From Chrysochromulina tobinii (lineage: Eukaryota), in the NCBI GenBank assembly GCA_001275005.1, contig JWZX01002884.1:1-37440 (forward strand): a DNA stretch of 37,440 nt, read 5' to 3'. The notes under the pieces were generated by a model that saw nothing but the letters and a program-made list of their open reading frames with translations, made no database searches and was not told where the DNA came from. Position numbers and translations under genes: made by a program. Positions 3,825 to 32,139 of the stretch are shown in pieces. Position 1 is the stretch's first letter. Each line of letters begins with the position of its first letter.

Positions 3825-6176
3825 ACCGAGGGCGAGCCGCCGCCGCGCGAGGAGGAGGAGAAGGAGGAGGAGGCCGACACAAATGAGGTCACGCCCCAGT
3901 CGGTGCAGCACCCTCCCTTCGGCGTGGGCCGCGCGTCGCTGGGCGACTTGATCCCGCGCCGCCGGACCGACACGACCGACTACCGGCTGTCGGGGCTGCC
4001 GATCCATCCGCCTCGCCGCCTCACCCTCGAGCTCGACATCTTGCCTTGTGAGCTCACCCTCGAGATTGCCTTGTGAGCTCACCCTCGAGATTGCCTTGTG
4101 AGCGTCCCAAATCGAAGCCCGAGCTCGAGGAGGCGAAGCCCGATGCGCCCCTACCTTGCATGCACACGCTCACGACGACGCCTCCGCTTCCCCACAGGTG
4201 AGCGTCCGAAAGCGAAGCCCGAGCCCGAGGAGGCGGCCGCCGAGTACCACGCCGGCTCGTACGTGGAGAGTGGGACCCTCGTGACCGTGTACGTCGAGCT
4301 CGCGTCGCCTCTCGGGGCCGAGGGCAAACCGAAACCCAAGGCGGAGCTGCAGCGGATGATCACGCTCATCAGGTACGCCGACACCCCAGTGCTGCACGCC
4401 CTGGCCAGCTGCATGCAAGTGCTCAATGCGGCGTCCTCTCCTCCCCACAGGTACGCCGACACCCCAGTGCTGCACGCCCTGCTCGCGGTGGTCAAGGCGG
4501 CCAACGACGCGATCGGGATGGGGTCCGCCTCCGCGTGGGAGTCATACAAGGAGTCGGCTCGTGAGGACCTCGACCTGGTGACCGGCGTGCATCTCGTCGA
4601 CGGCGAGTGCAGGCTCTTCTTCTTCGAGGGGCTCGCCGCGACGGCCCCGGACGATCCGAACCCGAACGCCATGGGACGACTCGCCAAGCTGCTCGAGCGG
4701 CGCAAGCCGAACTCGGGCACGGCGTTCACGCTCATGGACAGCTCGATCACGTTCTCGGAGCGGCTGTATAACACCTTCGAGATGCCCACGAAGCTGATCA
4801 AGCTGCGCCAGCCGATCCCCGCGCTGCTGCTCCGGCCCGACGTGTACCGGTACCTTCGCGTGGCCGAAGGCACTCAAAAGGCCCTCCTCTGCCTTGGATG
4901 CCTGCTTGGCTCGCAGACGCTGCGCACGGCGTACAAGGCGAGCGCCTTCCCGCACTGGGAGCACCTGCTGCAGCTCGAGAAGAAGTTTGGCGGCGTGCAG
5001 CTCGTCGCCGACCGAGAGGGCGTGATGCTCGATGACGACGATGAAGATGAGCCATTCGATCCGATGGCGGAGACGGGCGCGGCGCCGGTGAAGAAGCAAC
5101 GGCACCGGCCCGCCGCGCGCAAGGCGCCGACCGATGGGGACAACGAGGCATGGTACAAGTCTCTCGAGGCGCGCGCGCTCATGCAGCCGATCGACTACCT
5201 TGCCAAGAACATCGCCGAGCTGCCGCAGCCGCCGCCGCCCGCGCCACTCCCTCAGTGGTACCTTGACGCGATTCCGAAGCTCGAAGGGCCAGCGTACATT
5301 TACTCTGGCCAGCGGCTCAACCAGCAGGAGCAGCAAAAGGAACTGCTCCGCCAGGCGCTCATCAAGCTGCACAAGGAGAAGAACATTCAGATGACGTACA
5401 ACAAGGAGTTCTTGTGGGCGGACTCGGTGGGCGATCGCGAGCCGCCGAAGCCGAAGCGAGAGCAGATCCCGAACATGAAGCCCGACGCGCACCTCGCGCC
5501 GTGGGACATCAAGCAGCCCATCATCCACAACAAGGACGGCACCACCTCGAGCTTCCGAATACTGCAGCCGTCCGACTACCGCTCCGAAGAGCTGAAGGAG
5601 CCTTGGGACGAGGAGGAGCTGCTGCGCTCGCAGCGGCCCATCCAGCCGCCTGGGCCACTGCCGCCGGGCGCGATGCACCACTCGCGCCGATGGGACCCGA
5701 ACCCGTGCCCGAACGACTTTTTGGACGAGGACATCCACGAGCGGATGCGCTCCGTCTTCTCGGGCATGACGGAGGAGCAGATCGCCGCCGAGAAGCTCGC
5801 CGCCGTCGACGGCGCCGTCAAGACATGGCGCGACAAGCTCGTCGTCGACGACCCAGTGCTGCGCATCAACCTGCGATCGAGCGACTACGCGTCGCAGGTC
5901 GACAAGCTGAGCTCCGTTCTCGACGACAGGCCGGTCAAGAAGGCGCTCAAGTCGCTCTACAAGGGCAAGACACCGCTGAAACTGGCGGCCGAGCCGTCCG
6001 CCTTCACCCTATCGGTACCGTACGAAGAGGCAAGCACCCAGGGGCTCTCGCTCACCTGGCGCGGCTCGACGTCGTGGAAGCCATCCTCGGACGGGCTCGA
6101 TGTGACCCTCGCGGCGACGAAGGGCAAGTCGAAGGGAAAGAAGGTCACGATGTCGCTGCCGCAGAGCCACCGGTGA
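2829..6176 (+). CDS. CFAP92/KIAA1257-like ciliary protein; exons 2829-4047, 4198-4372, 4451-6176 (about 1039 aa)
   Basis: Motifs LNPMCVTLVRADGLP...CEPV, LEVHDRD, PFGVGRASLGDL, GSYVESGTLVTVYVELASPL and LDLVTGVHLVDGECRLFFFEGL recall CFAP92. Two GT-AG introns join ORFs 2772 and 4098 in phase. Confidence 0.7.
4048..4197 (+). other. Intron (150 nt) containing duplications of both flanking exons
   Basis: gtgagc...cccacag; removes an in-frame TGA; phase-1 join gives LPCERPK. Confidence 0.8.
4373..4450 (+). other. Intron (78 nt, in-frame) whose first 31 nt equal the next exon's first 31 nt
   Basis: cag|gtacgc...ctccccacag|gtacgc; explains the duplicated peptide RYADTPVLHAL in the ORF track. Confidence 0.8.
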
Positions 6177-6464
6177 GAAACACCAGGCCCTGCGTGTCCC
6201 GCCGGGGGGCGACGCGGACATGACGGATCATGACATACATTGGTCGAAGCTCAGCGCGCCGCGGAAGTCGTGTTGACCTGAGTCTATTTGAACGAAAACC
6301 CGTCACATCCCTGACACCGAGATGGGATCTCTTTTGAGCAAGTGTGTCTGGGAAGTGGAACTTCACATGAAGTCAAAGGTTCGTCACTTCTTTTCCGTCG
6401 CCCCCTGGGTCAGTGTCGTCAGTGGACTACCTTGGGCCCGCGCGCACGCCCCCGATCGTGATCC

Positions 6465-7232
6465 ATGCGCCTCGGCATCTGCTTCTCTCCCGCGGGATTG
6501 CTCTTCCCTTACTACGTCGGCGCGGGCTATGAGCTGCAGCGCCTCGGCATACTGCAACCGCAGACGCCACTCGGTGGCTCCAGCGCCGGGGCCATCGTTG
6601 CAGCATGCCTTGCCTGTGGTGTGCCTGAGGAGACAGTGAGGCTAGGGCTGGCGCGACTCGTGGACGACGTGCGCGCCGGCACGCGGCTCAACGTGGCGCT
6701 CCGCAAGCAGCTCGAGACATTTATGAACGACGACTCTCCCGCGCTGGCTGCGAAGCATGGCCTGACACTGGGCTACTTTGAGGTGCTGCCGCGACCCGGC
6801 CCACGGCTCGTGCGTGCTTGGGCTGACCGCGACGACCTCATCGACTGCATCTGCGCCTCTTCCAACTGGCCCCTCTTCTTCTCTCGCTGGCCATTTGTCA
6901 GATGCCGCGGCGCGTGGTGCCTGGACGGCTTCTTCTCCGTGCCTCGCAGCCGCTTCGGCTGCCCAGTACTCAGTGAAGGCGTAACGCGCACGCTCGCCAT
7001 CACTGCTCTGCCGAAGGTGTCGCTCTCGGCCTTTCTAGACGAGGACATCATCCAGCCGGGGCGCGCGGGATATGCTCCCGCGCTGCCCGTCGACGACAGC
7101 AAGTGGTTCAACTGGGCGCTGACGCCAGCGCCCGACGAGCAGCTTGATGCGATGGTCGAACTCGGGCGGCAGCATGCTCGCGTGTGGGCTTCAAGGGAGC
7201 GCGATTCGTTGTCGCCGGCGACCCTGATATGA
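6465..7232 (+). CDS. Patatin-like phospholipase
   Basis: CFSPAGLLFPYYVG oxyanion loop, GSSAG nucleophile elbow, ASS and LDGF catalytic Asp motif. Confidence 0.85.
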   Translation: MRLGICFSPAGLLFPYYVGAGYELQRLGILQPQTPLGGSSAGAIVAACLACGVPEETVRLGLARLVDDVRAGTRLNVALRKQLETFMNDDSPALAAKHGLTLGYFEVLPRPGPRLVRAWADRDDLIDCICASSNWPLFFSRWPFVRCRGAWCLDGFFSVPRSRFGCPVLSEGVTRTLAITALPKVSLSAFLDEDIIQPGRAGYAPALPVDDSKWFNWALTPAPDEQLDAMVELGRQHARVWASRERDSLSPATLI

Positions 7233-7489
7233 GACGTGTGAATTGTGTGCCGGCCGCCGGGACACAGCGACACACCGCAGTTGATCGCCCTAAATTCTTG
7301 CGCGCACACACTATATATACGTCCGGCGCTGAGGCAGTGGTTTTGATCGACGCGCGACGCGAGCTCACGCGACCGAGCGGAACAGCATCAGCCACGAGCA
7401 ACGCGCAAGCGCAGCGTTATCCTTACGTTATCCGAGTGCGTCAGTTCGCGATGAGCGAGTAATGAGCGGTCTCCATACAGTCCTTAGCG

Positions 7490-7656
7490 CTTAGCAACCG
7501 GAAAAAAATAGGGATGGACCAGGTTTTCGTGGTTTGAACCAGGAAAAGCGGTCCGGACCAGCCCAAAGTGGTTTGGACCACCGACGGTTCGTACCACTGT
7601 TTAGTGGTTCAAACCGGGAAAACCTGGCCCATCCCTTTTTTTTTCCGGTTGCCAAG
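7490..7656. mobile_element. Foldback/MITE-like element with about 50-bp terminal inverted repeats
   Basis: cttagcaaccggaaaaaaatagggatggaccaggttttcgtggtttgaacca (7490-7541) is the reverse complement of 7605-7656 with 5 mismatches; internal repeated GGTYYRRACC-like palindromes. Confidence 0.65.
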
Positions 7657-8028
7657 GTCTTTGGCTTGTATTGAATTATTCTCGCGAACCACTGTGACGC
7701 CCACGTGCCGTTGCCGATCGGATTGATCATGATTGATGCATACATCTGTTACGAGAGACGCCCATAATAAGAATAGGGGGGGCGGGCGGCTAGCTGGAGG
7801 CGTTTCCAAGGGGGCGTTTCCCGTTTTCACTCATTCACTGCTCATACACAGGCCCCTGTGTAAGGAGTGTAACGTCTACAGCTAGCCTTAGTCTGCGCCC
7901 TCCACGGTATGTCTCCACGGGACTGGTGGCCGTGCGTCTTACCGAGATGGCAAACTTGAGGGGTACCTCCGGCTTGACTTCACACCTGGGCATCGGGAAC
8001 TAACGGCTGGAGGATCGGCAGGGAGTCA

Positions 8029-8488
8029 ATGCCGCTCCTCAAGCAGGAATCCAAGATGGCCGCCGGGCCCACTGACGCGTTCGCGGAGCTGGAGGCGCTC
8101 CGCTCGGCCAAGGAGCGCGAAGTCCATGCCGCCGGCGCCGCCCAGCCCATTGTTCCGGCGGTCGCTCTCCAGCAGTTCCTTGTCCTGCTCCAAGCGAAGA
8201 AGTTTGAGAAGGCCAAGGCACTCGCCTTCCGCCGTGCGTGCAGCCCGCTCGCATCGCCGCCCATGGCGCCCATTCCACCGCTCTGCTGATGATGGCCTTC
8301 GTCGTGCCGAGCGCTCTCGCTGCTTGCGCAGTCCTGACCGACGAGCCCGACAATCAGACCATCTTGCGCTCGCTGCCTCTGATTGACATGCAACTCAAGC
8401 TGAAGGAGGGCCGTCCTGCTGATGATGACGACGAGGACGACGAGGAGGATGACGAGGATGATGATGACGACGACGATGACGATGACGA

Positions 8489-8537
<49 letters not shown>

Positions 8538-8747
8538 GCTGACAAGCCGATTGAGAACGAGCCAGTGATGGCCAACGGAGCCGCTGCTGCCCCCGTGCCG
8601 GCGGCTTGCGACGACACGACTGCTGCCGCGGCAATGCAGGCGGCAGCTCCGCGCCAGCCCGCGCCATCGGACGCCGAGCTGCGTAGAGAGCTGCGCAGCT
8701 TGGTCGACAGCTTGGTCGAGGAGGAGTCGACACAGGTGGTGAGGTGA
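8029..8747 (+). CDS. ERICH2-like acidic protein; exons 8029-8233, 8332-8747 (about 206 aa)
   Basis: GT-AG intron 8234-8331 joins LQQFLVLLQAKKFEKAKALAFR to LLTDEPDNQTILRSLPLIDMQL, similar to the ERICH2 core; followed by a poly-Asp tract. The 3' end is uncertain. Confidence 0.55.
8421..8537 (+). repeat. (GAY/GAG)n trinucleotide tract encoding poly-Asp/Glu
   Basis: Continuous gat/gac/gag codons. Confidence 0.9.
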
Positions 8748-9445
8748 GACGTGCAACGGCGAGCAGAGTCCAGAGAGAGTCCGTCGCGGCCAGACGTGAG
8801 GTGACGCCGTGCCCGTGATATCGCGAGCGTCGACCAAGCCTGACGAATATTTCATGATGCCGGTGTGCGCCGTGCACTAAATATATCCCCAGCCGCACGC
8901 ATCTTCGTGATTCGAAACGATCTGCCGTACGGGGTACGCGGGTACGCACGCCGCACGCGGCTTTGGAATTATATTCGTGAGCCTGAGCGCATAGTTACCC
9001 CTTACCCGAGGACCGTCGGTCCCCCCGCACCGAATCGCGAATGCGCCGCCGTAGAACGCCGTAGGCCCGTGTAGCCTCGGTTATTTGTACGGTCAACGTA
9101 AGGTCAACGGTGGATCGCGGCCCCGCCGGCCCGTCGTCCCCGCCAGCGGATTCGCCTTTCGCGCACTGCCTCGCCTTGGAAATTATGCCTGGGGGTATCC
9201 CCCTCGCCAGGTCGAGCGTCGCCTCCCGTCCTCCCGTGTCCCGTCCTGCCGTTTTCCTGCCCGGTCCACAGGTTGACTCATTTTGCCGATCACATGACAC
9301 GTTGATACCCAGAGCACCCGCAGGCGCAGCTAAGGCGCAGCCACATGACATTCAGGCTCTGGAGGTCTGGTGCAGTGGTGCTCTCATCGTCTCATGAGTC
9401 TCAACTACTCGTCTAAATTACATGAATCTCGTCTGAGTTGCCTTA

Positions 9446-10174: not shown

Positions 10175-12663
10175 ATGGGTGTCCGTGCGCCGGCACTGCT
10201 GGTGCTACTCGCAGCGTCGCCGTGGCACGCTCTGCGCATCATGCCTCACGCGCGTGTGCACGCGCCGGTGGGTCGACCACGCCTGCGGCTGCCGCGGCTC
10301 TCGATCATTGATTTTCCTGGAGACTCAGCCGCAGAGAAAGGAGGCAAACAGCCGTCACCAAACAAGCCTGGGGCCGCCGAGTCGCGGCTTCGATTCCCCG
10401 AGGAACGTGAAGGAGCGTGGAGGGCTGCCTCGCGCGACGGTGCCGCCAATGTAGGCTACTACCTCGACGAGCTCTCGCAGCCATTCTGGAGGCGCAACGT
10501 GCGAGTGGAGGTGCTTTCAGAGTACCCAGTGGGTACGCCGGAGGCCAACCCGGAGGTGGGCGGGCGTCAGCGGGAGATCCAGTGGTTTCGCGGCCTGCGC
10601 GACGACCTGCGCCGCAGGCTGCCGCTCTACACCTCCGACTGGGTGGACGGTGTGAGCTCGAGCGGCCGATCGAAATCTCTCGCCGCCATCTCCTTTTTGT
10701 ACTTTGCATGCCTCGCACCGGTGGTCGCCTTCGGTGGCGCGCTCTCCGGGCTCACGCAGGGCGCGATGGGCGTCTCCGAGGTGCGCCTCGCCTGCGTGCT
10801 TTCCTAATATGGGCTCCCGCGCCGTCTCCCTGCACGCTGCATGCAAATGCTCAGCACGGCGCGCAACCATCGCTCCCCTCTTCCCACAGGTACTCCTCTC
10901 ATGTGGGATCTGCGGCATGGGATACGCGGCCCTGTGCGGCCAGCCCATGACCTTCGTCGCTCCGACGGGCCTCACCCTCGCCTTCACCGCCGCCCTCTTC
11001 CGCTACTGTGCCAGCCTCGGACTCCCCTTCTTGCCCATGTATTCGTGGGTAGGTTGCTGGACAGCGCTGCTTCTCGTATGCGGCGCGGCGGTCAACGCGT
11101 CCGGCCTGATACGGTACTGCACGCGATTCACCGAGGACGTCTTCAACGCGTTGCTCGGCGTCAACTTCCTCTGGGAGGCGTCACGCTCGCTCATTCGCGA
11201 CTTCAAGGGCGCCGCCAACCCGGGAGGTGGGTGGCTCGCAACGCTGCGGGAGGCTCGGCATGCATGTGCTCACCACGGCGCGCTCGGTGGCTCGCTCTCC
11301 ACGCTGCGGACGGCTCGGCATGCCTGTGCTCACCACGGCGCGCCCCCCCTCGCCCTCAGGTGGGATGCTCGCGCTCAACATGGGGCTGCTCACCGCGTAC
11401 CTGCTGCAGAAGACGTTCCGAGTTTCGATCGACGCGATACCTCTCACGCAAATGGCGTGAGGGCGTCTCGGACTTTGGCCCCTCGGCGGTGATCATGGGC
11501 CTCTCTGCCCTGTCGCTGCTGCCAGTTCTCGAGCACATCGGCACCTTCTCGCGCCTCTCGATGCCCGGGGGCTTCCAATTGAGCGGAGGGCGAGCGCTCT
11601 TCGTCAACATGCTCGAGCTCGAGCCCACCTACCGGTATCTCGCTCTGATCCCGGCTATCTTTCTCTCGTTGCTCTTCTTCCTGGATCAGGTGATGGCCCT
11701 TGATGGCCACTGATGGCCACTGATGGCCATCGGGTGTCATTGTTTGCCACTGATTGCCACTGATGACCTCGCCAAGTTCGCACTGATGGCCACTGATGGC
11801 CATCGGGTGTCATTGATTGCCACTGATTGCCACTGATTGCCACTGATTGCCACTGATGACCTCGCCAAGTTCGCACTGATGGCCACGGATTGCCACTGAT
11901 GGCCACTGATGACCTCGCCAAGTTCGCACTGATGGCCACTGATTGCCACTGATGGCCACTGATGACCTCGCCAAGTTCGCCGCTCCTCTGCCTTGATCAG
12001 AACATCACCGTGCGGACAGTCAACTCGCCCTCGCACAAGCTGCGCAAGGGGCAAGCGTACCACCTCGACCTATGTGCGCTCGGCGTGCTCACGCTCTTCG
12101 CCTCGCTGACGGGGCTTCCGTGGATGTGTTCGGCGACCGTACAGTCGCTCAACCATGTACGCGCGATGACTGTCTACAGGAAGATCAAGCCCAAGGACGG
12201 GCCCGAGCTCGAGGTGCCAGATTACGTGGTCGAGACACGGGTCACCGGATTCGGCGTGCATGCCGCCGTACTGTGCTCCGCCCTCGCAATCCCGACACTC
12301 TCGCTCGTGCCCTTGCCTGTCGTCGCGGGGGTCTTCCTCTACCTAGGGCGCAAGGTCATGACAGGTAACCAGTTCATCCGCCGGTGCAAGCAGCTCTTCC
12401 TTGATGAGGACGAGCTGTGCATCAAGACTGAGGGCGAGAAAGAGCAAGTGATCCTCGGGCGTAAGGCCGTCTGGCGCTTCACGGCGATGCAGGTCCTGTG
12501 CCTCACCATCCTCTGGTGCCTCAAGCTCACGCCCAGCACGGCGCTCATCTTCCCGTCGGTCATTGGCGTGCTCATGATCCTTCGATCCAAGCTCATCCCG
12601 AAGCTGTTCACAGGTCGCGAACTCATGCTCCTCGACACCGCGATCGGTGCCACGAGCGCATGA
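10175..12663 (+). CDS. SLC4/BOR-family bicarbonate transporter, plastid-targeting-like N-terminus; exons 10175-10780, 10890-11226, 11360-11689, 12001-12663; +1 frameshift at 11416-11417
   Basis: FRGLRDDLRRRLPLYTSDW, SFLYFACLAPVVAFGG, GQP, YCTRFTEDVF, SDFGP, FFLDQNIT...HKLRKGQAYHLDL, GLPWMCSATVQSLNHVRAM, VVETRVTG and GVFLYLG are SLC4 transmembrane signatures. Confidence 0.9.
11690..12000 (+). repeat. Intron filled with 10-bp GAT(G/T)GCCACT satellite plus gatgacctcgccaagttcgc higher-order units
   Basis: cag|gtgatg...ccttgatcag|aacatc joins FFLDQ to NITV. Confidence 0.9.
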
Positions 12664-14282: not shown

Positions 14283-15951
14283 ATGACAGACATGGTGTCA
14301 CGATGGTGGCGACGATTTGAGGTATGGTGCGCTGGGCTGCTTGTGGCCGAGACGCTCCTAACGGCCCTCATCGTGCTCAAGCGTCCGTACACGGAGATTG
14401 ATTGGAAGGCGTACATGGAGGAGGTAAAGGGTCCGATCGATGAGGGCACCTTCGATTACATGCAGCTGCGAGGTGCCACGGGCCCACTCGTCTACCCTGG
14501 CGGCTTCGTTGCTCTCTACGGGGCTCTGCGCGCGCTCGCGGGCGGCGACGGCTCCGACATCCGCACAGCGCAATGGGCCTTTGTTGGCGTGTACGTTGGG
14601 ACGCACGCTCTCGCGGCGGCGTGCTACGCGGCTGCACGGCCACGCTCCATGCCACCGTGGGCACTGCTCCTCCTGTGCATCTCGCTCCGCCTGCACTCCA
14701 TCTACGTGCTGCGCCTCTTCAACGACTGCTGGGCCATGCTGCTAGCGTGGGCTTCCTTCGCCCTCTTCTGCAGAGGTCGCTGGGTGGTGGGTTGCGTGTG
14801 CTTCTCGCTGGGCGTGGGCGTCAAGATGAGCGTGCTCCTATACGCCCCCGGGCTGCTCTTCCTGCTCCTCGAGGCGCACGGCATCGCCGGGGCCGTCTGC
14901 CACATTGCGATCTGTGCCTTGGTGCAACTCGTCCTCGGGCTGCCCTTCCTGTTGACGAACCCCGTCGGTTACCTTCTGCGTGCTTTTGGGGGCTTCGGCG
15001 ACCTGAACCAAAAATGGTCGGTCAACTGGAAGATGCTCCCAGCGCAGCTCTTCCAAGCGCGCGCCTTCGCGCCGGGGCTCCTCCTCCTCCACCTATGCAC
15101 CCTCGGCTTGCTGGCGAGGTATCGCTGGGGTACCCGCGATGAAGGAGGTGTGGTGCGTGCTCTCAAACGCGCACCGCTGCCGCTGGGCGCGCTGGTGCAG
15201 CGGCGGCTGTCGGCGACGCACGTGCTAACAGTCCTGCTCGGCTCCATGGCGGTCGGCGTCGTCTTCGCTCGGTCGCTCCACTACCAGTTTTACTGCTGGT
15301 ATTGGCACTCACTGCCGTGGCTGCTGTGGCGGAGCACGTCGTTCCCAGTGCCTGCGAAGCTCGTGTGCTTTGCTCTTCTTGAGTACGCTGATTGGCACGG
15401 ATGGCCACTGACTGCCTCTCGAGTGCCTCCTGTGACCGCCAATTGCACACCTCATCAGGTACGCGTGGAGCTACGGCGTGGACAGAGCAGATGGCACGCC
15501 AACACCACGGTCCTCAATCTCGCTGCAGCTCGCGCATCTCCTCCTCCTCATCGCGCTCGGCATGGCGCCGCCCACAACGGCGCTCGAATGCGTGCCTGCG
15601 CCGCCGGATGAGGGCGCCTATGCCCACGACGGCGCTGCGGACTTGGCCGCTGCCATAGTCCTCGTCAACAACGAGCACGCCGACGAGGTGGCGGCCCTCG
15701 CAGCACGTCGAGGTGCCGTCTCGCCTGCCGACGCGCGTGGTGCGCTGCTCATCGCAGCCGATGGCACAAGCGGCGAGCTCTCGATCCAGCTCTGGGAGGG
15801 GCGTATCGTGTGCGTGAGCACAAATGGCTCCGCTCTCAAACACAATGTGGTCCCTGAGCGGATGGAACGAGACGTTGTGGCGGGCAGCAGGCGGCAGAGG
15901 TACACAAGTGAAGAGCTGCTCGACAGGATCCAGCGGGCCGCGCGGGAATGA
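14283..15951 (+). CDS. ALG3: Dol-P-Man alpha-1,3-mannosyltransferase ALG3 with C-terminal extension; exons 14283-15382, 15459-15951 (about 530 aa)
   Basis: PYTEIDWKAYM, GATGPLVYPGG, RLHSIYVLRLFND, GVKM, KWSVNWK, ARSLHYQFY; 76-nt intron ga|gtacgc...cctcatcag restores LEYAWS...SS...AHLLLL. Confidence 0.92.
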
Positions 15952-19060: not shown

Positions 19061-22000
19061 ATGGCGGCGAACTCCATCGCGCCCCCGCCAAACGACGCGG
19101 ATGATGAGACCAAGCGCTTGCAAGCCGATAGCGACGCGGTAGGCGCCGCGCAGGACTCGGAGATATTCGCCAACTACGCACCAACACACGCCAACCCAGG
19201 CCCTCCGCACCCTGGAGACGTCGCGGAGGCAGCCTCGCTCGCGGCGACGGCAGCACCGAGAACGACCTACGAAGTCATCGAGGTGCTTCGCACGGGCGGC
19301 ACGCTCTCTAACTTGCAGCTCGAGTGTGTGCAACTCGCTTCGCAGCGTCACCTTACGGTGCTGCCCATGCAGCCGCCGACGCGCTGTGGCTTCTTCCTGG
19401 GCGACGGGGCGGGCGTCGGCAAGGGACGGCAGCTGGCGGGCATCATCCTGGACAACCTCGCCCGCGGTCGATCCAAGCACCTCTGGTTTTCCTCTTCAGC
19501 CGACCTGAAACACGACGCCGTCCGCGACCTGAGCGACCTCGGCTGCCATCTGCCCGTTCACGACGGGTGCCAGGGCCTAGACCGCGGTTCCAAGGGGCTC
19601 GGCCTCTCGACCGAGATGACCCGGGGCGTGCTCTTCTCGACGTACGCCACGCTCGTCTCGGCCACCAGCGCGCAGAAGCAGAGTGGCAAGAGCCGGCTGC
19701 GCCAGCTTGTCGAATGGTGCGGCGGACCCGACTTCGAGGGCTGCCTGATGCTCGACGAGTGCCACAAGGCGAAAAACTTCCAGCCGGGCAAGGAGGAAGC
19801 GTCCTCGAAGGTGGCGCAGGCGGTCATCGAGCTGCAGCGCGCGCTGCCGATGGCGCGCGTCGTCTACTGCTCCGCCACGGGCGCCTCGGACCTATCGAAC
19901 ATGGCCTACATGGAGCGTCTAGGGCTATGGGGGCCCTTCTCAGCCTTCGCCACCTTCGAGGCGTTCACAGAGGGCGTCAAGAACCGCGGCGTGGGCGGCC
20001 TCGAGATGCTCGCGATGGAGATGAAGGCGAGCTCGCCACTGAGGCCCACTGATGGCTTGTGATGGGCCTCGGAGTCCCTCTGATGGGCCTTTGATGGGCC
20101 TCTGAGTGCCTCTGAGTGCCTCTGAGTGCCTCTGAGTGCCTCTGATTGCCTCTGATTGCCTCGGATTGCCTCTGATTGCATCGGATTGCCTCGGATGGGC
20201 CTTTGATTGCCTCGGATTGCCTCGGATTGCCTCTGATGGGCCTCGGTTTGCCTCTGATGGTCTCTGCTGATGCCCGCCCTCATCAGGCGAGCGGCTCGTA
20301 CCTGATTGCCTCTGATGACCTCTGATTGCCCCCCTCATCAGGCGAGCGGCTCGTACCTGAGCCGCGGCCTCTCCTATCGCGAGGCCGAGTTCGAGCTCGC
20401 CACGGTCCCGCTCACCTTCGAGCAACGCGCGTGCTTCGATGCAGCGGCGCATTTCTGGTCGGATCGTCTCTTGCCGGCTGTCGAGACGGCGGTGGCGCGG
20501 ACACAGACGGCCGCCGGCCGCCTCGCGCAGCAGGCATGGTCCGCACATCAACGGTTCTTCAAACAGCTCTGCGTGAGCTGCAAGGTGTGGCACCCGCGCT
20601 CGTGTTGAACGCCCAGCACGGCGCCAGACCTCCCGCTTGCATGCGAGTGCCCATCACGGCGCGCGTCGCCCTCCGACGCGAGCGCCCAGCCCGGCGCTCT
20701 CGCATGCACGCGCTCACAACGGCGCCATTCTACGTACCTCTTCGCATGTCCAGGTGCCCGCGCTCGTCGAGCGCGCGCGTGCCGCGCAAGCCGACGGGTA
20801 CGCCGTCGTGATTGGGCTGCAATCGACGGGCGAGGCGGCGCTCGAGAAGGCGATCGCCGCCGACGCGGACCTGCGTGCCCCCATCTCTCTCTGCCGCGCC
20901 ATCGTGCTCGGGTTCCTCGAAGCTCATTTCCCAGTGACCAAGGCCGCGGACGCCAAGCTCGACAAGGAGCTCAACCGGGCTGAGGAGACTGTGCGTGCAC
21001 ACAACTGACGAAACACGCTTCCCGAATGGCCTCGCTCCTTGACGAAGCACGATTCCCGAATAGCCTCGCTCCTTGACGAAGCACGATTCCCGAATGGCCT
21101 CGCTCCTTGACGAAGCACGATTCCCGAATGGCCTCGCTCCTTGACGAAGCACGATTCCCGAATGGCCACGCTCTTTGACGAAACACGATTCCCGAATAGC
21201 CTCGCTCCTTGACGAGACACGATTCCCGAATCGCCTCGCTCCTTGACGAAACACGATTCCCGAATCGCCTCGCTCCTTGCCTCGCACATAGCGCCGCCCT
21301 GAGCGCCGCCCTGAGCGCCTCCCTGAGCGCCTCCTCATCAGGTGCTGGCCTGCAAACATCAGCTTGCAAGCATCCGTGCGGCCGCCTCGAGCGCCGGCGG
21401 GTACGGGCTGAGCATCGAGTCCCAGCAGGCGATTGCCCAGGCAGAGCGCATGCTCGCGAGCGCTGTCATAGCAGTCGTGCAGCTGCAGGCCGCGGTGGAC
21501 GCAGACAGGGCGGCGAGCGGGCAGATTGATCCGGAGTGCTTTGCCGAGCGCCAACGGCTCGTCGACGAGGTGCGTTGATTGCACTTGATTGCGCTTGATT
21601 ACAATTGATTGCACTTGATTGCTCTTGAGCGCGCGCCAACGGCTGGTCGACGAGGTGACTCGACTCGAGCTGCCACCCGCCCAGCATGCAAGTGCTCACC
21701 ACGGCGCTCGACCCCCCCCTTTCCACAGGTGAATGCACTCGAGCTGCCACCCGCCGCACTCGACGTGCTGATCGACGAGCTGGGCGGCAAGAAGGCGGTC
21801 GCCGAGATGACGGGGCGCAAGTCGCGAATGGTGCGTTCGGCGGATGGTCGACGCTTTGTGCTCGAGGCGCGCGCGAAGCCAGAGTCGTCCGAGATGGAGA
21901 ATTTGAATGTCTCCGAGCGGAACGCCTTCATGGACGGCAAGAAGCTGATCGCGATCATCTCCGACGCCGCCTCGACGGGCATCTCGCTCCAGGTGCGCCG

Positions 22001-25000
22001 AGATTTGGACCGAGATCTGACTGAGATGCGCCCCTGAATCTGCCCCCGATGGTCGCGCCTCGAGAGCTCAATCTCGCTCTATCTCGCTCGATCTCGCTCC
22101 ATCTCACTCCATCTCGCTCGATCTCGCTCGGATCTCGCCCTTCCAGGCGGACAAGCGCGTCGCCAACCAGCGCCGGCGCTGCCACGTCACGCTCGAGCTC
22201 CCGTGGTCCGCCGATAAGGCGGTGCAGCAGCTGGGCCGCTCGCACCGGGCAAACCAGGTCTCGGCACCGCTCTATGTGCTTCTGAATACAGACGTGGGCG
22301 GCGAGTCGCGCTTCGCGTCTGCTGTGGCGCGTCGGCTGCAGGTGAGTCTCGTCAATTGCCTCTGATGGCCTCTGATGGCCACTGATTGCCACTCTCGGCT
22401 GTGGCGGCTGCAGGCGCTCGGGGCGCTCACGAAGGGCGATCGGCGCGCCGAGGCGGGTCTCGGCGCGCTTGACTCGTTCAACTTCGACAACGCGTGGGGC
22501 AAGCGCGCACTCAAGCTCGTGCTCCATGGGCTTGCTGATGGCACGTCGACGCATCCGGCGGTGCTCGCGGCGCTCAGCTCGGCGCGCTACCCACAGATGT
22601 GCGCTGCCTCTGATGACCTCTTGATGGCCTCTGATGACCTCTTGATTGCCTCTGATGACCTATTGATTGCCTCGGATGACCTCTTGATTGCCTCCCTCAT
22701 CGCCTCATCAGGTGCGCGAGCCTCGAGCTGCTTGGCGCCACGAGCCCCGCCGAGCGCGATAAGATGGAGGTGCGTCGCTTCCTCAACCGGCTGCTTGGGC
22801 TGCCTCTGCGTGAGCAGAACGAGCTGTTCGACCTCTTCTGTGCGACGCTCAGTGGCGTCATCAGCGCCGCACGCAAGGATGGCAAGTACGATGAGGGCAT
22901 TGCGGACCTGTCCGGTGCCTCAGTCTCTCTCGAGGAGCCCGAGACGGCGCTCTGGTCGGATCCGCTCACGGGCGCCGTGATGAGCACGGCTCTCGTGATG
23001 GTCGATCGTGGCGTCTCGTGGCACGCTGCGTGTGAGAAGCTCGCCGCACGGCTGGCGCTCGACGGGCAGCAGCAGCCAACAACGACGACGACGACGACGT
23101 CGAGCGCCGTCGCGGGCGCCGTCGTTGGTGGGCAGCGCACGCCCAGCAGCAGTGCACGCGTGCCAAGGTCGTTGGTGAGGGCAGGTAGCACGCGCCGGCC
23201 AAGAGATGTGGACGAGGACGAGGAGGAGGACGAGGGCGAAGGCGAAGACGAGGGGATGTCGGACTTCATCGTGGACGATGACGCAGAGGAGGAGGGGGAG
23301 TCCGCGGCAAGGGGTAGCGAGGAGGCTGGCGAAGACGAAGAGAAGCAATCCGAGGCGGCGGCGGCGGAGGAGGAGGCAGCGACGGCAGCAGCCGCAGAGG
23401 CGGCGGCAGCGGCTGTGGCGCCCGCGGACGTGGAGCTCAATGTCGAGCTCGAAGAAATCTCCGACGACGACGACGACGCTCACGACGACGCGCAGCCCAG
23501 GGCGGGCGGTGCGCCCGCGACGGCGCGTCGTAAGCCGCCCCCCAAGGGCGCAGATCATTGCACTGGCTTCCACCGCTCACGCTTCTTGCAAGCAGGCGAG
23601 CGGCTCTACGTGCTGGCCTTGCCGCGCGCCAACCGGGCCGGTTTGTACCTGCTCACCAGGCCGAGCACAGGGGACTCGCCTTTCGAGGAGGAGGAGGTGC
23701 GATCTCCCTTGATTGCCTCGCTCATCCGAGCACAGCGGACTCGCCTTTCGAGGAGGAGGAGGTGCGATGCGTCGGATGGCGTCTGAGTTGCCTTAGATTG
23801 AACCTGATCCCCCCCTTCCCCTCGTTCCCACCCTCTCTTATTTTTCAGCTGGACCTGCGGCGCAAGTACGAGAAGATCTCGCCGGAGGAGGTGCGATCTC
23901 CCTTGATTGCCTCCCTCATCCGAGAAGATCTCGCCGGAGGAGGTGCGATCTCCCTTGATTGCCTCCCTCATACGAGAAGATCTCGTCGGAGGAGGTGCGC
24001 ATCAGCCGGTCGGCGTGTGCTAGGACGCTCCAATCGCCTCCAATTACCTCTTTCATCGCCTCTGATTGCCTCTCATTTGCCTCTGATGGTCTCCCTCATC
24101 AGGCGCGCCTCGGCTGGACGGCGTCGTATGAGGGCGCTCTGCATGATAAGAGCGGCGGGAGGCTCTCTCGACTCCAAGTGCTCACCGGCTCGACGCTGCC
24201 GCTGCTGCCGCTCCTCGAAGGTCTCGTCAAGAAGCATGCAGGCAGCCTGACGAAGCGCGACCAGTCCGTGGCCGCTATGCGAGTCCAGCTGGGTGAGCGG
24301 TGGCTCGGCGGCGCTCGGATTGACTCAGATTGCCTCGGATTGCCTCGGATTGCCACGGATTGCCACGGACTGCCACGGATTGCCTCGGATTGCCTCGGAT
24401 CGCCTCAGATTGCCTCAGATTGCCTCGAATGGCCTCCCTCATCAGGTGAGCGGCGGCTCGTCGGCGTGCGCTTCCCGCGCTCGCTCATGGGCGATCTCAA
24501 AGCTGAGCTCGTTGCCTTCCAGCAGCAGCGCCAGGCAGGCGCCGGCCAACATCTCACTGTGGATGTTGCCCGACCCTTCGACGCTCACGCCTACGCGCAA
24601 GCGACGCGCCCGCCGCAGACGCTCAAGAACTTCTTTGGAGGTGCGGCGTCAAAGCCCGCGATGGCGCCCAAGATGGCGCCCACGACGGCGTCCAACTTGT
24701 TTGCCGCCTCCTCGTCTACCGCCGGATTGACGCCCACGACAGCGCCCAACCCGACGTCCTCGATCGATCTCACTGCCGAGATCTCGACGCAGAGCGACGC
24801 CGCGTACGCCCAACGGCTGCAGCGGCAGTACGACGAGGAGTCCGTGTCCGCGCCTGCGCCGGGCGGCAAGTCCGGTTTAGGCAAGGACATTGGAAATCCC
24901 GTTTTGGGTAAGGATAAGGGCAAGGTCGCCGTGCGCGCGGCGCCGAGCGGCTCGACGGGCGATGGAGGCACCGGCGTCAAGCGCAAGAGCGTCCTGGAGT

Positions 25001-26472: not shown

Positions 26473-26612
26473 CGATTTCCCGATTACGATTTCGGCAAGC
26501 GTGCTCGCGAGAGCTCGTTGTGGAGTGTGGTGTGAGGTTTGGGTGACAATACAACAAATGGTAGCACTCGCTATCATAGCCCCTCAAACTCAACGCCACG
26601 ACACAACGTTTC

Positions 26613-27401: not shown

Positions 27402-28049
27402 ATGAGACAGTTTCTATCGACGAACGAGATCTTGTGCGACCACGGCGACCCCGACACCGCTGCTCCGCACACGCACACACTTCTCGTGTGCGCTCGCGGA
27501 AAGCCAAAAACCATGAAAAACTTGGCCAAAAAGGGTTTGCACTCGTCAAGTCTTCAAATGTTTTGGTGCCGGTTCACGTTCACGTTAAATTGCCATCTCG
27601 GCAAGACGCACAGCCACAGGTTTTGGTGCCGGTAGCCGTCATAGCCGCAACACATGAGAAGTTAAGACCTGCCGCTTAGCAAGAGACCGTTTTGCAAATC
27701 CCCAACGCTGAAGTGTCAGTGTGTAGTGTGTACAATTGTAGTGTGGTTTTGAGATTCCCTTCGGGCGTGGGGCGTCTCGGCGTCACGTCATCTGAATGAA
27801 GGCCACGCTCGAAACATACAATGCTCGAATCAATGCACAATGGCTCGAATCAGGATCACAGAATGCCTCTGTAGTACGAGTGTACCCGCCCCCGACCCCG
27901 TTTGCTCTACAGCTCTCAGCTGTCCTAAAATTGTTACTGCTAAAACTCCCCACAATAATCGACTCCTATCGTCCCATCTGAGATCTGTACGCGCCTCCAC
28001 ACAGAAACCTATAGTACATGCGAGGCGGAGAGCAGCTGGACTTCCGGGC

Positions 28050-28677
28050 TTAATCGCGGATCGTCATGCTCACGAGCCCCTCTACGTCGACACTAGCCGA
28101 TGCCCAAAACCTGCGTCGTGCACGCCTGCTGGCCGAGAGCTCCTGTTCAGCCGCAGCTCGAGCCCACGCGCTCAGCTCGGGTGTCTCGTCTACCAGCTTC
28201 ACACGGCTTGAACCCTCGTCTAGCCTGTCGACGGTTGATTTCGGAGATAGCGTCATTTTGTGATCCCGCTTTGTGATCCCGCGGCGCGGCAGCCAGGGAG
28301 TCGACGAAGGGTGACCTGCACAGGCGAGCACTGGACCTCTTGGTCAGCATGTGCTGGAAACGACGCTTTGAGCGGCTGCAGATGCATACAGGCAGACGGC
28401 ATCGGGCTTTCGAGGTTCAAGAGCTCTGTTAGCACGCACGGTGTCGGTGACGCATCGCGCTCTCCATCTGCTTCTGCTCGCTGCGCAGGCCTTCGCGGAG
28501 GTGGGAGAGATAGGCGGCCTCCAGTCGTCTGCTGGCATCATCCTCGTTCTCCTCGGCCTCGCAGCACAGCCGCTCGACCCAGTAAAGGTCCTCGGTACTG
28601 ACCATTGACACAACCGATTGTTGCGCGTGCTCCGAACTCATCTCATCGAACAAGGACGCGAGGACGGAGACCTCCAT
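28050..28677 (-). CDS. Hypothetical protein; exons 28677-28440, 28315-28050 (about 167 aa)
   Basis: GTGCGT...TGCAG intron 28439-28316 joins two ORFs in phase 1. Confidence 0.45.
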
Positions 28678-28943
28678 GTGAGTCCGCACTGAACGAATTC
28701 TTTTCGACGAAATCTGATTTCCTTTTCGAGAATGGCCGGAAGCTCCCGACGTCCGAACACCCCCTAGGTCTCAGTCACGCAAGGAGTCGACGGTCCGGTC
28801 GACAAGGTTTGGACTGAAGGAAGCAGGAACGCCGGCCCTAACCGTGGTTCCACACTCAACGGAGAACGGACCACATTCCACACTCAACGGACCACCGCAT
28901 ATGAACCCGTCGTATATGAAATATGATCCTCGCCGATCGTGCC

Positions 28944-29018
28944 GCCTGCCGTAGTTCAGGTCGAGCCTCGCACCGGGCAGTGAGCCCGAGTTCGCGAGTC
29001 GCCATCATGTTGGCAGCG
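28944..29018 (-). promoter_or_regulatory. Eukaryotic SECIS element (form 2) in the msrB 3' UTR
   Basis: Minus strand reads ctgcc aac ATGA tggcgactcgcg AA ctcgggc tcact gcccggt gcgaggctcgacc TGA actac ggcag: helix I, AUGA/UGA core, 12-nt spacing to AA, apical mini-stem. Confidence 0.88.
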
Positions 29019-29060
29019 AGCGCGTCAGCACTGATTCGAACTGATTGAATGCTCTGGCCC

Positions 29061-29549
29061 CTACATCACCGCGCAGCCACCGGCAGCTTTGAGCGCCAGG
29101 AGCTCCTCCGGCAGCTTGACCGGCATCTCAATGAGACCCTCGGGAACAGCATCTTTGACGTACTTGATGCAGATCGAATTGACTCAGTGGCGCTCGTCCG
29201 TCTCAGTTTGCGACTCGCCATAGAATACGTGGCCCAGGTGCGAGGAGCAGCCGTTGCAGATGATCTCAAGGCCAGCAGCGTCTCTCTGAACCCCGACGTG
29301 GCAGTTGTCGTCCGTGTAGAAGCACTTGTCGAAAGCATCCCAACCGCAGTCCTTGAACTTGGACGTCGATGAGTACAGAGGGAACTTGCAAGCGCGGCAT
29401 GCGAAATATCCCTCCTTCGGGAAGAACGCGTGATACTCGCCAGTGCCCGCTCTCTCCGTGCCCGCTTTGCGGAGGCACCTGAACTCATTAGGCGTGAGCT
29501 CCTTGGCAAACTCGCTGTTTGGGCGATTATGAGGGAACTTGCCCTCCAT
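29061..29549 (-). CDS. msrB: Selenoprotein methionine-R-sulfoxide reductase B (UGA=Sec at 29184-29186), 162 aa
   Basis: GTERAGTGEY, Zn ligands CRAC and CNGC, GW, HLGHVF; TGA sits at the catalytic site RH-U-VNS; the frame continues ICIKYVKD...GGCAVM-TAG; SECIS downstream. Confidence 0.93.
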
Positions 29550-29819
29550 GTCGAAAGAGCGAACGCGAGCGTCCTTCTCAGGAATTTCCGAAATGAATAT
29601 GGATCAGACCGCTTTTTTATCGTATATCCAACCAAAGGGCAGGTGTAGGTGTTCTTTTGAACAGCCTGCATAGGGGTTTGTGCGATGTCTTCTAAAAGCG
29701 GACACTTTCGCGCGAGGGGAGAAAAGCGGTTCCATCCTCACGCCGCCGCTGATCTCGCGCCAGCCCGGCGACAGGCTATGCCTCGATTATTTCGCCCCGG
29801 ATCGGCGCGCGTCCGACCG

Positions 29820-30307
29820 ATGTCTGCACACGACAGCAACCCGGCCAACATTCGTACTGAGTGTTGCACAAAGGAAGCTGGCGCCAGAGGTGCGCGTTCT
29901 TGCCCGCTTGCGCACCCGATCGCCCGCTTGCGCACCCGATCCGCCGTCTCACGCCACCTCACGCGCTCAAGTCTCGTTCCGAACCGGCAGCGGGCGTGTA
30001 CTTGAAGCAAACGCCAGGCATCATCACGATCGAGAGTGTTGAGCTGTCGAGCCCATTCTTTGGCCTCGTTCATCCGGGTGACCTCATTCATTCCGTGTGT
30101 GCCGAGGTCGATGGGTGCGAACCTCTCGATATGATGGGTGCCAAAGACGTGGCGGACTATGCTAAAATGTTCATCGCTGCTTCTCGGCTCACCGTGAGGG
30201 TTGAGACGCTTGGAATTTCGCCGGAGAAGGCTCCTAAAGCCTCAATGTATACTAAGGCTGCCCGTGTAGCGAGCCCTCAAAGCTGTACTCACTCTACGAG
30301 TACGTAA
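29820..30307 (+). CDS. Small PDZ-domain protein; exons 29820-29889, 29991-30307
   Basis: Spliced KEAGARAGVYL...ITIESVELSSPFFGLVHPGDLIHSV is PDZ-like; in-frame upstream ATGs at 29778 and 29685. Confidence 0.6.
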
Positions 30308-30486
30308 GTCGTACGGTAAGTCGTGCTCTAAGTCCTAAGAGAGAATTTTAGTCAACACTCGAGCAGAAAATACGTTATGAATAAAGGGCTTCTGAGTCGC
30401 GACATGTGCACATGACACGTCTCGAGCGCTGGCCCGCTGGGCCGTGTAGTTGTTACTCTGCGACTGCTGTGCTACCCTGCCGTGCT

Positions 30487-32139
30487 CTACCGTACATCTG
30501 CTCCATCTGCTCCATCTGCCGCTACATCTGCTACATCTGCTACTGCTGCTGCATGACTGATGCTAGTGCAAGTCGTGGTGGTGCTGCTGCTGCTGGATAC
30601 ACTGACCAACTCCAATTGGCTCGCTGCCGCTCTGGGCGGGAGCCGCGGCACCATCGCGACGCCAATGAAGCAGAGTGTCTGCACGAGCACGACGAGGCCG
30701 ACTGAGTAGAAGAGGAAATTGGGCGACGAGTCGAGCAGCGCACCTGAGGAAGGCAATTAGGGCAATTCGGGCAATTCGGGCAATTAGGGCAATTAGGGCA
30801 ATTCAAATGCCTATAGGAAATGGGGCGACAAGTCGAGCAGCGCACCAGTGAGCGGCGGGCCTAGGACGGCGCCCGCGAGAGCGCCCACGCAGAGCCGCGA
30901 GATCCAGACGCTCGAGAGCGGCACACGCGACTTTGCGAGCATGAGGCCCTGGGGGTACAAGGCTGAGATGCCGAGCCCGACTCCCGCCACACTCGCGAGC
31001 AGCCAAGTATAGTTCGTCGGAGCCGCGACAACGAAGACGACGGCTGAGGTGAGAGCGATGCTGAACTCGATGGCGCAAAAGGCCGCAGGGCGTAACCACC
31101 AGGCAAGCGGCACGGAGAGCAGCCGCCCCGCCAAATGAGCGCCAAAGAAGGCCGAGGTGGCAAACGCGCCGGCCTCTTCGTCCTGGTCCAACTCTGGCGA
31201 ACGTACTATGGCGGTTGTGAGCCAGTCGCCGGGAATGCGCTCGGCCGCGCCCAGGCACGCGTAGAAGCCAAACATGAGCACCATGATCAGGTAGAAGTGT
31301 CGAGGACGGTCGCCAGGCTCGGGCGCCACCGATTCCGGTCCTGTTCCTGGGTCGCCTCCTGGCCCCTCGTCTACCATGGCTGTGGACGCACTTCTGCTTC
31401 CGCGGGCTGTGGGAAGACGAGATGTTTGCTCGTCAGGGTCGCCTCGAGGACGACCACCACCGCCGCTGCTGCTGCCGTTGCCATGACCACACCTGTGCCG
31501 AGCATGCGCGTGCGCTTCTTGGGCAGAGTCTGAGGCTGCGAGCGATAGTGCGGCCCAGTGCTGGCGAGGTGGCGGCACCAGCACAAGCGGAAGGCTGAGC
31601 GCCGCCGTGCTGAGCGCTGCGACGAGATAGAGCAATGGCAATCGCTCCGCTGAGAGGCCGATGGCCTGTGCCAGGAGGGGTGCCACTGTGCTACCTGTGG
31701 ACCATGCGGCATGGAGCAAGTTCATCGCCGGAGCTCCACGCACCTCATCGTCTTCCCACAGCTTGACGAGTAGCACGTTGCCCATCACATCGATGCAGCC
31801 ACCCGCAAAGTTCATGCCTGCGACGAGGAGGACGAAGAGCCACAGACTGCTGGCATGTGGGAAGAGAGCCCCACAAAGCGCCATCATTATCTGCCACGCT
31901 GCCAGTAGCCAATGCGCATAGCGACCGGTCCGGTCCAGGAGCGCGCCCATGAAGATAGTCCCAGCGCCGTAACAAGCTCCACGGGCGATGTACGCTGGCG
32001 CAAGGTTGGATGGGTTGTTGACGCCGACTCGTATGCTGAGCGATGGAAGCGTTGGGCCGACAGTGCCAGGCATGAGCCCGAGGCCGATGAAGAGCACGCA
32101 GTATGCCAAGGTGCAGGCGTAGGGCCCATCAAGTCGCAT
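30487..32139 (-). CDS. MFS transporter (MFSD4/FucP-like); exons 32139-30846, 30743-30487 (about 516 aa)
   Basis: GPTLPSL, GALLDRTGR, GCIDVMGNVLL, MNLLHAAWSTGSTVAPL, AGRL, SALYP; intron 30845-30744 removes the TAG and restores the last transmembrane helix. Confidence 0.88.
30752..30803 (-). repeat. 9-bp aattgccc(t/g) repeat, about 6 copies, in the MFS intron
   Basis: gggcaatt(a/c) tandem units on the + strand. Confidence 0.9.

Follow-up and report, generated by a model that had tools for sequence, protein, structure and literature searches.

Introns of a freshwater haptophyte that join a copy of neighbouring coding sequence to a reused splice-signal cassette

Many introns of the freshwater haptophyte Chrysochromulina tobinii consist of a copy of neighbouring coding sequence and a reused splice-signal cassette. 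They were likely created and rebuilt through error-prone DNA repair, and an ordinary jumping element is the less likely agent. For most new introns no source is known, and the two documented routes, introner transposons and break repair with its unidentifiable filler, are usually kept apart. This alga is a hybrid, with introner-like splice logic, repair-like scars and a filler that is reused and traceable. As many as ten introns lie in one gene, and a large introner survey scored the species as empty; searches for introners that depend on similarity can miss intron gain on a large scale. The species is in culture, and with a sister genome for comparison and numerous lake strains, the rate, the template source and the enzyme are directly testable.

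Introns of the window and copies of their flanks

The window (the whole stretch of DNA analysed, 37,440 nt, from the Chrysochromulina tobinii/parva group) contains 19 modelled introns spread over seven genes, where the first-pass annotation had about 20 in five. Ten of the 19, E1 to E10, sit in a single gene, strawberry-notch. RNA contigs skip E1 and E10 exactly, confirming these two junctions, and one RNA run (X19, low share) spans the start of E1 only. The junctions of genes A to D and F and of the intron at 29890 are based on open frames and protein homology. The introns, and the reference copy of one cassette, are as follows.

4048..4197, plus strand, intron A1: iterated two-flank patchwork (25-nt unit, 2.5 times), cassette B acceptor; exact 6-nt start copy at 4048, next-exon start duplicated internally at 4098 (35/38)
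4373..4450, plus strand, intron A2: copy of next-exon start, 31/31 (and 3 nt upstream), then cassette B
8234..8331, plus strand, intron B1: ordinary, no flank copy or cassette; open frame only
10781..10889, plus strand, intron C1: cassette B, flank copy not significant; junction agrees with gene model P0376
11227..11359, plus strand, intron C2: start copy 11/13; 60-nt unit twice, holding cassette B twice
11690..12000, plus strand, intron C3: satellite S (10-nt unit), closing in a 16/19 copy of the previous exon end; the acceptor derives from this duplication
15383..15458, plus strand, intron D1: exact 6-nt start copy, cassette S
20027..20341, plus strand, intron E1: GC donor out of a 6-nt start copy, satellite S; acceptor junction copied internally at 20285-20305 (21/21); RNA contig skips 315 nt
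20585..20753, plus strand, intron E2: offset next-exon copy, 11/11 nt; cassette B twice
20991..21341, plus strand, intron E3: start copy of 4 nt, eight 34-nt units in a locus-specific array, cassette S end
21570..21728, plus strand, intron E4: donor and satellite, copy of the uninterrupted junction (47/52, from 21630), cassette B
21684..21707, plus strand, reference copy of cassette B: 24 nt, branch-point-like, then pyrimidines and CAG
21993..22146, plus strand, intron E5: satellite of 10-nt units that match the end of the previous exon; lake strain L003 has a longer array
22342..22413, plus strand, intron E6: donor and satellite S; end (22413) copies the previous exon end, 9 exact nt and 11/12 beyond a short gap
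22599..22711, plus strand, intron E7: exact 6-nt start copy, satellite S
23697..23848, plus strand, intron E8: 43-nt duplication over an older donor (copy at 23726, 35/36, and a 7-nt donor copy), 22-nt S filler
23891..24102, plus strand, intron E9: polymorphic 2 x 52-nt block at 23891-23994, core opening with an older, diverged next-exon copy; copies at 23921 (22/22) and 23972 (22/23)
24293..24445, plus strand, intron E10: start copy 19/21, satellite S; RNA contig skips 153 nt
29890..29990, plus strand, inferred 19th intron: no flank copy or cassette; frame open once removed, score 6.0
30744..30845, minus strand, intron F1: start copy 29/31 and a satellite of 9-nt units, in the sense direction of the MFS gene on that strand

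Every flank copy reported in the first pass (at 4373, 24293, 30845, 11227, 12000, 4098, 15383, 20027 and 22599 among others) is present, though with small shifts of position: the internal copy of E1 lies at 20285-20305, that of E4 begins at 21630 and that at 20585 is offset. The chance test covered 18 introns of this window, the one at 29890-29990 having been found later. Similarity no higher than in shuffled pairs, named in the first pass as a refuting outcome, is not what was seen. The local score against the own spliced flank is 17.1 and that of 306 mismatched pairs 7.1 (0/20,000 permutations), and seven of the 18 introns score above the null maximum. With 100-nt flanks, eight introns have own-flank copies of 21-66 nt that score beyond the 99th percentile of the mismatched set. 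The claim that most introns carry copies holds only if those of 6 nt are counted. The signal is strictly local, at 18.8 for the own flank and 7.2-8.8 when 100 nt off in the same gene. Exact starts of at least 6 nt are found in 7/18 introns versus 10/306 mismatched pairs. Intron-end copies do exist at 12000 and 22413, as first described, but taken together they are borderline (448/20,000 for exact matches; 3/18 versus 14/306). Inverted copies are weak (7.7 versus 6.9, 67/20,000), with none beyond the null maximum, and no appreciable flank copy was found in B1, E3 or 29890-29990.

The next exon opens with GT in 11 of the 18 cases and with GC in four; the rate of GT in exons is 4.4%. An AG upstream of the donor is absent at seven of 18 donors. 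Its absence goes with a start copy (6/7 versus 3/11, p=0.05), a weak and post hoc association.

Filler cassettes and a polymorphic block

Each copy-bearing intron also contains a cassette or satellite that is not local. The fillers are two high-copy branch-point cassettes, S and B, in sense orientation only. Cassette B has eight copies across six introns (8/8 sense), a very high summed contig depth and no stable hairpin of its own. For satellite S the summed contig depth, among the matches listed, is 36,000-115,000 versus about 38 for single-copy sequence, and within the window its 10-mers inside introns are 71 sense and 1 antisense. One 9-nt cassette end recurs in seven copies in six introns. 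Across the approximately 9.5 kb of intergenic DNA of the window (a length summed by hand) no cassette or array occurs outside introns. Five shared motifs make up 1332/2907 intron bases (46%, with liberal matching and no null), so the description of the remaining intron sequence as mostly shared modules is right for 7/18 introns and not for the others. The sole match of a cassette-only search of viral contigs, L001, has the build of E4 with a junction copy of 38/43. Of the other scans of viral contigs with cassette patterns, one found L001 again, two gave no match and one gave L034, an unrelated repeat. The matches to cassette patterns in prokaryote genomes are short bacterial repeats without intron context in 14/14 cases.

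At the donor of E9 a 104-nt block (23891-23994) is polymorphic among strains, a difference that is unpolarised by outgroup. L003 and P0336 have no copies, P0341 at least one and the window two. The block matches the start of E8 plus its own exon end. Its first 29 nt are the E8 start of L003, including a heptamer that fits the older donor of E8 and not that of E9, and the E8 and E9 donors have 12 nt in common. The block would be a case of remodelling through local template switching, and its polymorphism, with a template at hand locally, supports the earlier proposal that introns are remodelled. Microhomology is seen for this one event (12 nt); A1 fits by eye. Nested insertions in E1, E4, E8 and A1 are, with the E9 block, secondary insertions in introns, and in P0352 the existing E10 has been remodelled. 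The 34-nt array of E3 is shorter in L003 than in the window.

Gain, remodelling and competing explanations

A sister lineage (P0355, 97.8% amino acid identity; 6 contigs, the longest 16,642) is without the 26 codons of A2, no more and no fewer, though its protein begins inside intron A1. Outgroups at 54-74% have the upstream residues in common with P0355 and likewise lack A2. Its absence from the sister lineage and from more distant relatives makes a recent gain of A2 likely, as one case at the level of protein. The absence may also reflect precise loss between the 34-nt repeats, or assembly collapse. The A1 position is read through in relatives P0409 and P0458. In the strawberry-notch gene, relatives at 64-71% read through E1-E7, and P0328 and P0330 through E8-E10; many of them stop at other, lineage-specific places. 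(The cluster members considered were 15 of 132 for gene A and 15 of 47 for E9/E10.) Among the matches listed, a metagenome scan (38/64 parts) gave at least 17 loci, two of them close. The remaining 15 are distant strawberry-notch homologues, whose orthology is not established, and the alignable ones are without the intron positions of the window. The interpretation offered at the outset is supported in part, as regards intron gain by A2 and by the read-through positions of E1-E10.

The best reading of these sequences, held with middling confidence, is a repair-type templated insertion, with a Pol theta-like enzyme as candidate agent only. Breaks in genes would lead to error-prone repair synthesis that duplicates from a few to about 40 target bases, the gap being filled with sequence copied out of existing introns. 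In the gain step, with presence and absence on record for A2 and presumed for the rest, the duplication would give one splice site, mostly a GT or GC donor from a donor-like exon stretch and more rarely an AG acceptor, while the branch point and the remaining splice site would come with filler cassette S or B. Selection would retain only inserts that are spliced out exactly. In a second step, the same process at an existing junction would bury the old splice site; such remodelling would account for the uninterrupted-junction copies inside A1, E4 and E9. Thereafter slippage would change array length and the intronic copy would drift, as is seen against L003. Iterated, patchwork, flank-templated inserts are described as a mark of Pol theta in PMC12426944, where its inserts are generally <25 bp. 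Those here are 22 to >100 nt, which counts against repair of this type. So does the lack of cassettes in the intergenic DNA of the window, since repair of breaks at random sites would not lead one to expect it, and so do high-copy cassettes with like ends, which are expected of a target-primed element. The weakness of inverted copies, and microhomology seen in one event only, count the same way.

A more tentative proposal is that introns breed introns without a transposon, a transcription-coupled repair polymerase copying branch-point cassettes into staggered breaks. It is similarly tentative that the template would be the DNA or intron RNA of existing introns and the targets transcribed genes. 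With the splice site still lacking provided by duplication of the target, this would be a self-feeding, genome-wide intron factory, invisible to introner searches.

In the main rival explanation, possible if doubtful, gain is due to a mobile cassette that is non-autonomous and makes target duplications of variable length, remodelling being separate slippage. The variants, no less speculative, are a Replitron-like HUH element and target-primed reverse transcription, with intron 3′ ends or a SINE-like RNA as its template. A constant 3′ end, together with a 5′ extent and a duplication length that both vary, fits the cassette-acceptor introns, and the depth of satellite S and the restriction of copies to genes and to the sense strand are also in its favour. 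Introners occur in marine Chrysochromulina MAGs. For Replitron-1, duplications of variable length are described in bioRxiv 2022.12.15.520654, which also reports a single Replitron locus in C. tobinii. However, the window introns have no defined ends, terminal inverted repeats or poly-A tail, and there are at least two unrelated cassettes besides locus-specific arrays (E3, E5). C3, E5 and E6, which draw the acceptor from the duplication, do not fit, nor does the E9 filler, which matches the adjoining intron. An RG, the target of Replitron-1, stands before no more than 12/18 donors, no reverse transcriptase or transposase is among the 22 window proteins, and PMC12130899 lists no introner families for this species.

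It is improbable that tandem exon duplication over a cryptic splice motif makes the intron, with cassettes arriving later and improving splicing. Perfect short tandem duplications do occur outside introns, at 8696 and 28257, and A1, E4 and E9 have junction-spanning copies. Yet no intron consists of next-exon start and previous-exon end alone, A2, the youngest-looking (31/31), already has its cassette with an upstream copy of merely 3 nt, and the upstream AG is missing at seven donors. Still less probable is that the introns are old and were lost in relatives, the copies being scars of remodelling only. Existing introns are remodelled (E9; E10 in P0352), long direct repeats make precise loss possible, and zero differences in 31 nt has p 0.15-0.5 at 2-6% divergence. 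Ten introns would, however, have to be lost in parallel in several relatives with introns of their own elsewhere, and A2 in the sister lineage as well as the outgroups. Assembly artefact, foreseen in the first pass as an explanation of the duplications, is largely ruled out by a second assembly (L002, equal to 11729-31992 at 20,263/20,264 bases) and by L003, with the same copies and independent substitutions, and is further opposed by the imperfection of the copies and by the exact skipping in RNA, though an apparent frameshift near 11418, absent in the C. parva model, means that the window sequence is not error-free.

Comparison with known systems

Like introners, the window introns have lineage-specific positions and take one splice site from a duplication and the other from the insert (donor from the duplication in A2, C2, D1, E1, E7, E10 and F1, acceptor in C3 and E6). 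Introners resemble one another from end to end and have defined ends, whereas here only cassette B (24 nt) and arrays that vary are common. Each introner family has a fixed duplication length, whereas with cassette S it is 6 nt in D1 and E7, 21 in E10 and 31 in F1, and with cassette B 31-38 in A2 and A1. Terminal inverted repeats of the MITE type are not found in the window introns (mean score 4.7 versus 4.3 for mismatched ends), nor is an autonomous partner among the 22 window proteins. A marine Chrysochromulina sp. family is described with a 4-bp duplication and no terminal inverted repeats (bioRxiv 2022.06.06.494994, PMC12130899, bioRxiv 2020.10.14.339549); supplement file 7 of PMC12130899 gives C. 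tobinii 0 families.

Replitron-1 of Chlamydomonas, as described in bioRxiv 2022.12.15.520654, has variable duplications, oriented insertion and carriage of parent-site sequence in common with the window. Its length of 0.9-3.6 kb, direct terminal repeats and RG target are fitted by none of the cassettes, in which no common terminal repeat is seen (RG is ahead of 12/18 donors). Copies of a SINE or non-LTR element lie in both orientations and outside genes, whereas those of the window are sense-only and intron-only. In the tandem genomic duplication route of PMC3296678, duplicated exon sequence likewise gives a splice site, but here the branch point and second site come from a foreign cassette.

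The templated insertions of Pol theta in PMC12426944 are likewise flank-templated, iterated patchworks primed by short homology; that account does not describe them as making introns. The double-strand-break neointrons of Daphnia pulex (PMC4202315) have a direct repeat of an adjoining exon end at their opposite end, receive later insertions while young and are polymorphic for presence, as A2, absent in P0355, is among close relatives in one protein-level case. The exon repeats given there are 4-12 bp, whereas the window copies reach 31-38 nt per side and span junctions. The Daphnia filler is reported as AT-rich and mostly unsourced, whereas in the window a GC-rich branch-point cassette is used again and again as filler, and in one case can be traced to the adjoining intron.

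Gene models and copies of flanking exons

The window is eukaryotic, with 63% GC and about 19 genes. Proteins clustering with its bicarbonate-transporter exon bear the names Chrysochromulina parva and C. tobinii, and the window is taken here to belong to the C. tobinii/parva group, which are freshwater haptophytes. Eighteen introns were modelled across six of these genes, and the tests described here cover those 18; a 19th was added later.

4048..4197 (+), intron A1
4373..4450 (+), intron A2
8234..8331 (+), intron B1
10781..12000 (+), introns C1-C3 of a bicarbonate transporter gene
15383..15458 (+), intron D1
20027..24445 (+), introns E1-E10 of a strawberry-notch gene (E1 20027..20341, E8 23697..23848, E9 23891..24102, E10 24293..24445)
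29890..29990 (+), the 19th intron
30744..30845 (-), intron F1 of an MFS gene

With introns removed, genes A, B, D, E and F have open frames. In gene C a one-base frameshift near 11418 (~11410-11420) remains, which the C. parva model P0376 does not have; it is either a sequencing error or a strain-specific break. RNA confirms the junctions of E1 and E10, where 315 nt and 153 nt, no more and no less, are missing from the contigs of run X16. Homologue alignments span E1-E10 and A1-A2, and P0376 spans C1-C3, while B1, D1, F1 and the 19th intron have open frames as their sole basis. The E1 donor at 20027 is a GC taken from the exon copy, and a buried earlier acceptor in E1 is skipped, as the RNA shows the full 315 nt removed. 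Elsewhere, a SelR/MsrB gene (29066-29549, (-)) has an in-frame TGA at 29184-29186, past which the frame continues. The TGA sits at what we take to be the catalytic Cys motif and, judging from the sequence, is likely a selenocysteine codon.

Every flank copy named by the first-pass annotation was found in the window, and its expectation that introns resemble their own flanking exons more than shuffled ones was borne out: the mean local score is 17.1 for own flanks vs 7.1 for 306 mismatched intron/flank pairs, a mean matched in 0/20,000 permutations of the 18 introns. Eight of the 18 (A1, A2, E1, E4, E8, E9, E10 and F1) exceed the 99th percentile of the null, and exact intron-start copies of at least 6 nt occur in 7/18 introns vs 10/306 mismatched pairs. 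In gene E the signal is gone at a distance of 100 nt. Copies at 3′ ends are marginal taken as a class, inverted copies show only a slight excess (67/20,000), and no real flank copy was found in B1, E3 or the 19th intron. The copy pattern is real and non-random. Perfect filler-free tandem duplications are also present (12 nt at 8696-8719, 13 nt at 28257-28282 and 20 nt at 29902-29941), and suggest a general tendency to short duplication.

Cassettes and the supply of splice sites

Two types of cassette recur in the introns. S is a 10-nt satellite family, often with a particular 9-nt acceptor motif at its end; that motif is found 7 times in 6 introns. B, with 8 copies in 6 introns, is 24 nt long and leads into pyrimidines and CAG. 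Both types lie in the sense orientation (S units 71 sense vs 1 antisense; B 8/8 sense). The S unit contains the pentamer CTRAY, the branch-point consensus, which within introns is found 46 times in sense vs 9 in antisense. S is abundant genome-wide, since its summed contig depth, which is not a copy number, is 36,000-115,000 vs ~38 on unique DNA; no cassette arrays were found outside introns in the window.

The introns follow two complementary builds, in which the copy gives one splice site and the insert the other. Either the intron start is a copy of the next exon and the acceptor comes from a cassette, or the intron end is a copy of the previous exon and the donor comes from the insert. The next exon starts with GT in 11/18 cases and GC in 4/18 (GT is 4.4% in exons). 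Inside A1 (55/66), E4 (47/52) and E9 (50/61) the copy is of the uninterrupted junction.

Scanning for the cassette alone gave a single locus, L001, with an inferred 139-nt intron of E4-like build and a 38/43 junction copy. This contig, filed as viral, has at its end (2720-3060) an exon that looks eukaryotic and an intron with cassette B, and is a probable chimera with haptophyte DNA. In E5 (21993-22146) a satellite unit that is not high-copy matches the upstream exon end, so that flank copies may be the origin of some satellites. The MFS gene has a 9-nt satellite at its 3′ end (30493-30554), which is unrelated to S and B. Diverse bacteria (L019-L032) have a similar 10-mer in short tandem arrays, apparently between genes; these were judged unrelated.

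Intron gain and remodelling

The evidence supports both gain and remodelling of introns, as had been proposed. A protein of a sister lineage, P0355 (97.8% identical; 6 contigs, the longest 16,642), lacks exactly the 26 codons of in-frame intron A2, and as it begins within intron A1 it is read from unspliced DNA. A2 is present in P0354, P0356, P0361, P0364 and P0421 (among the matches listed, 15 of 132 cluster members). A single gain is the parsimonious reading, because A2 is also missing from relatives at 54-74%, several of which have intron-like tails, and their upstream residues are those of P0355; precise loss, or collapse of the 34-nt repeat, is possible. Two adjacent residue changes, IV to MI at ~4355-4362, lie 4-5 codons upstream of A2; they are confined to the A2-bearing lineage, are among 14 differences in 651 residues, and are possibly repair-associated.

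In gene E, relatives at 64-71% (P0121 and P0128, on 9- and 19-kb contigs) read through E1-E7, and P0328 and P0330 through E8-E10; many other relatives stop at other positions. Related strawberry-notch ORFs (P0176-P0323) have stops at many different positions, which suggests that lineage-specific gain may extend across this wider group. E1 is present in all 13 close proteins (at least 96%) that reach it among the matches listed, and the lake strain locus L003 has all ten introns.

Remodelling is seen at the E9 donor, where a 104-nt block, unpolarised, is absent from L003 and P0336, present as at least one unit in P0341 and as two in the window. The unit consists of 29 nt identical to the start of E8 in L003 plus 22-23 nt of the E9 upstream exon, and its opening heptamer is that of the older E8 donor rather than of the E9 donor; the two donors have 12 nt in common. 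These features point to synthesis having switched template to the neighbouring intron, either on two occasions or once with a later duplication. The E9 core under the block is itself copied from the next exon, at an earlier time and with divergence since (0/5000 shuffles), and therefore gain followed by remodelling accounts for the junction-spanning copies. P0352 has a different 5′ part of E10. Copies drift after formation: in L003 the E4 copy has no mismatch in its upstream part, and the F1 copy is nearer to its exon in 4/10 other cluster members.

Mechanism and known systems

Repair-type templated insertion is the mechanism we favour, at about even confidence, because the duplications vary, copies are iterated, the template is local and there is microhomology (12 nt, at E9), much as the available text of PMC12426944 describes for Pol theta products. 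The staggered-break neointrons of Daphnia (PMC4202315, as far as the text seen goes) are likewise matched by these features. Against the repair reading, the inserts exceed the usual length of those Pol theta products. Nor does repair explain that no cassettes were found in the ~9.5 kb of intergenic DNA in the window (length summed by hand), a possible sign that the process is coupled to transcription.

A target-primed or HUH-type mobile cassette is less probable, though a real contender. It accounts for 3′ ends that stay constant, and C. tobinii is reported to have a Replitron locus (bioRxiv 2022.12.15.520654, in the part available), but a cassette of this kind is a misfit with introns whose acceptor comes from the duplication and with the E9 filler. 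Pure tandem duplication fits worse than either and is improbable; the reading of these as old introns also fits worse and is slightly less probable still. Assembly artefact, which the first-pass annotation had named as a possible undoing of the duplications, fits worse too and is very improbable: L002, possibly of the same culture, is identical to the window at 20,263/20,264 bases, and L003 has the same copies despite differing at 25/3151 exon and 49/1350 intron positions.

In the literature searched, which took in few subscription papers and not all supplements, this architecture is not described for haptophytes. The C. tobin genome paper, in its accessible text, mentions introns once and the window's repeats not at all (PMC4580454). 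In the portions available, the introners described for marine Chrysochromulina carry 4-bp duplications (bioRxiv 2022.06.06.494994; PMC9860276 supplement); C. tobinii is in the genome list of that study (PMC9860276), and the available part of another survey gives it 0 introner families (PMC12130899 supplement file 7). Among dinoflagellate introner families, duplication length differs between classes (bioRxiv 2020.10.14.339549, available sections). The window introns are introner-like in their working but are not introner members, and are best classed as intron gain associated with repair, in which splice cassettes are reused.
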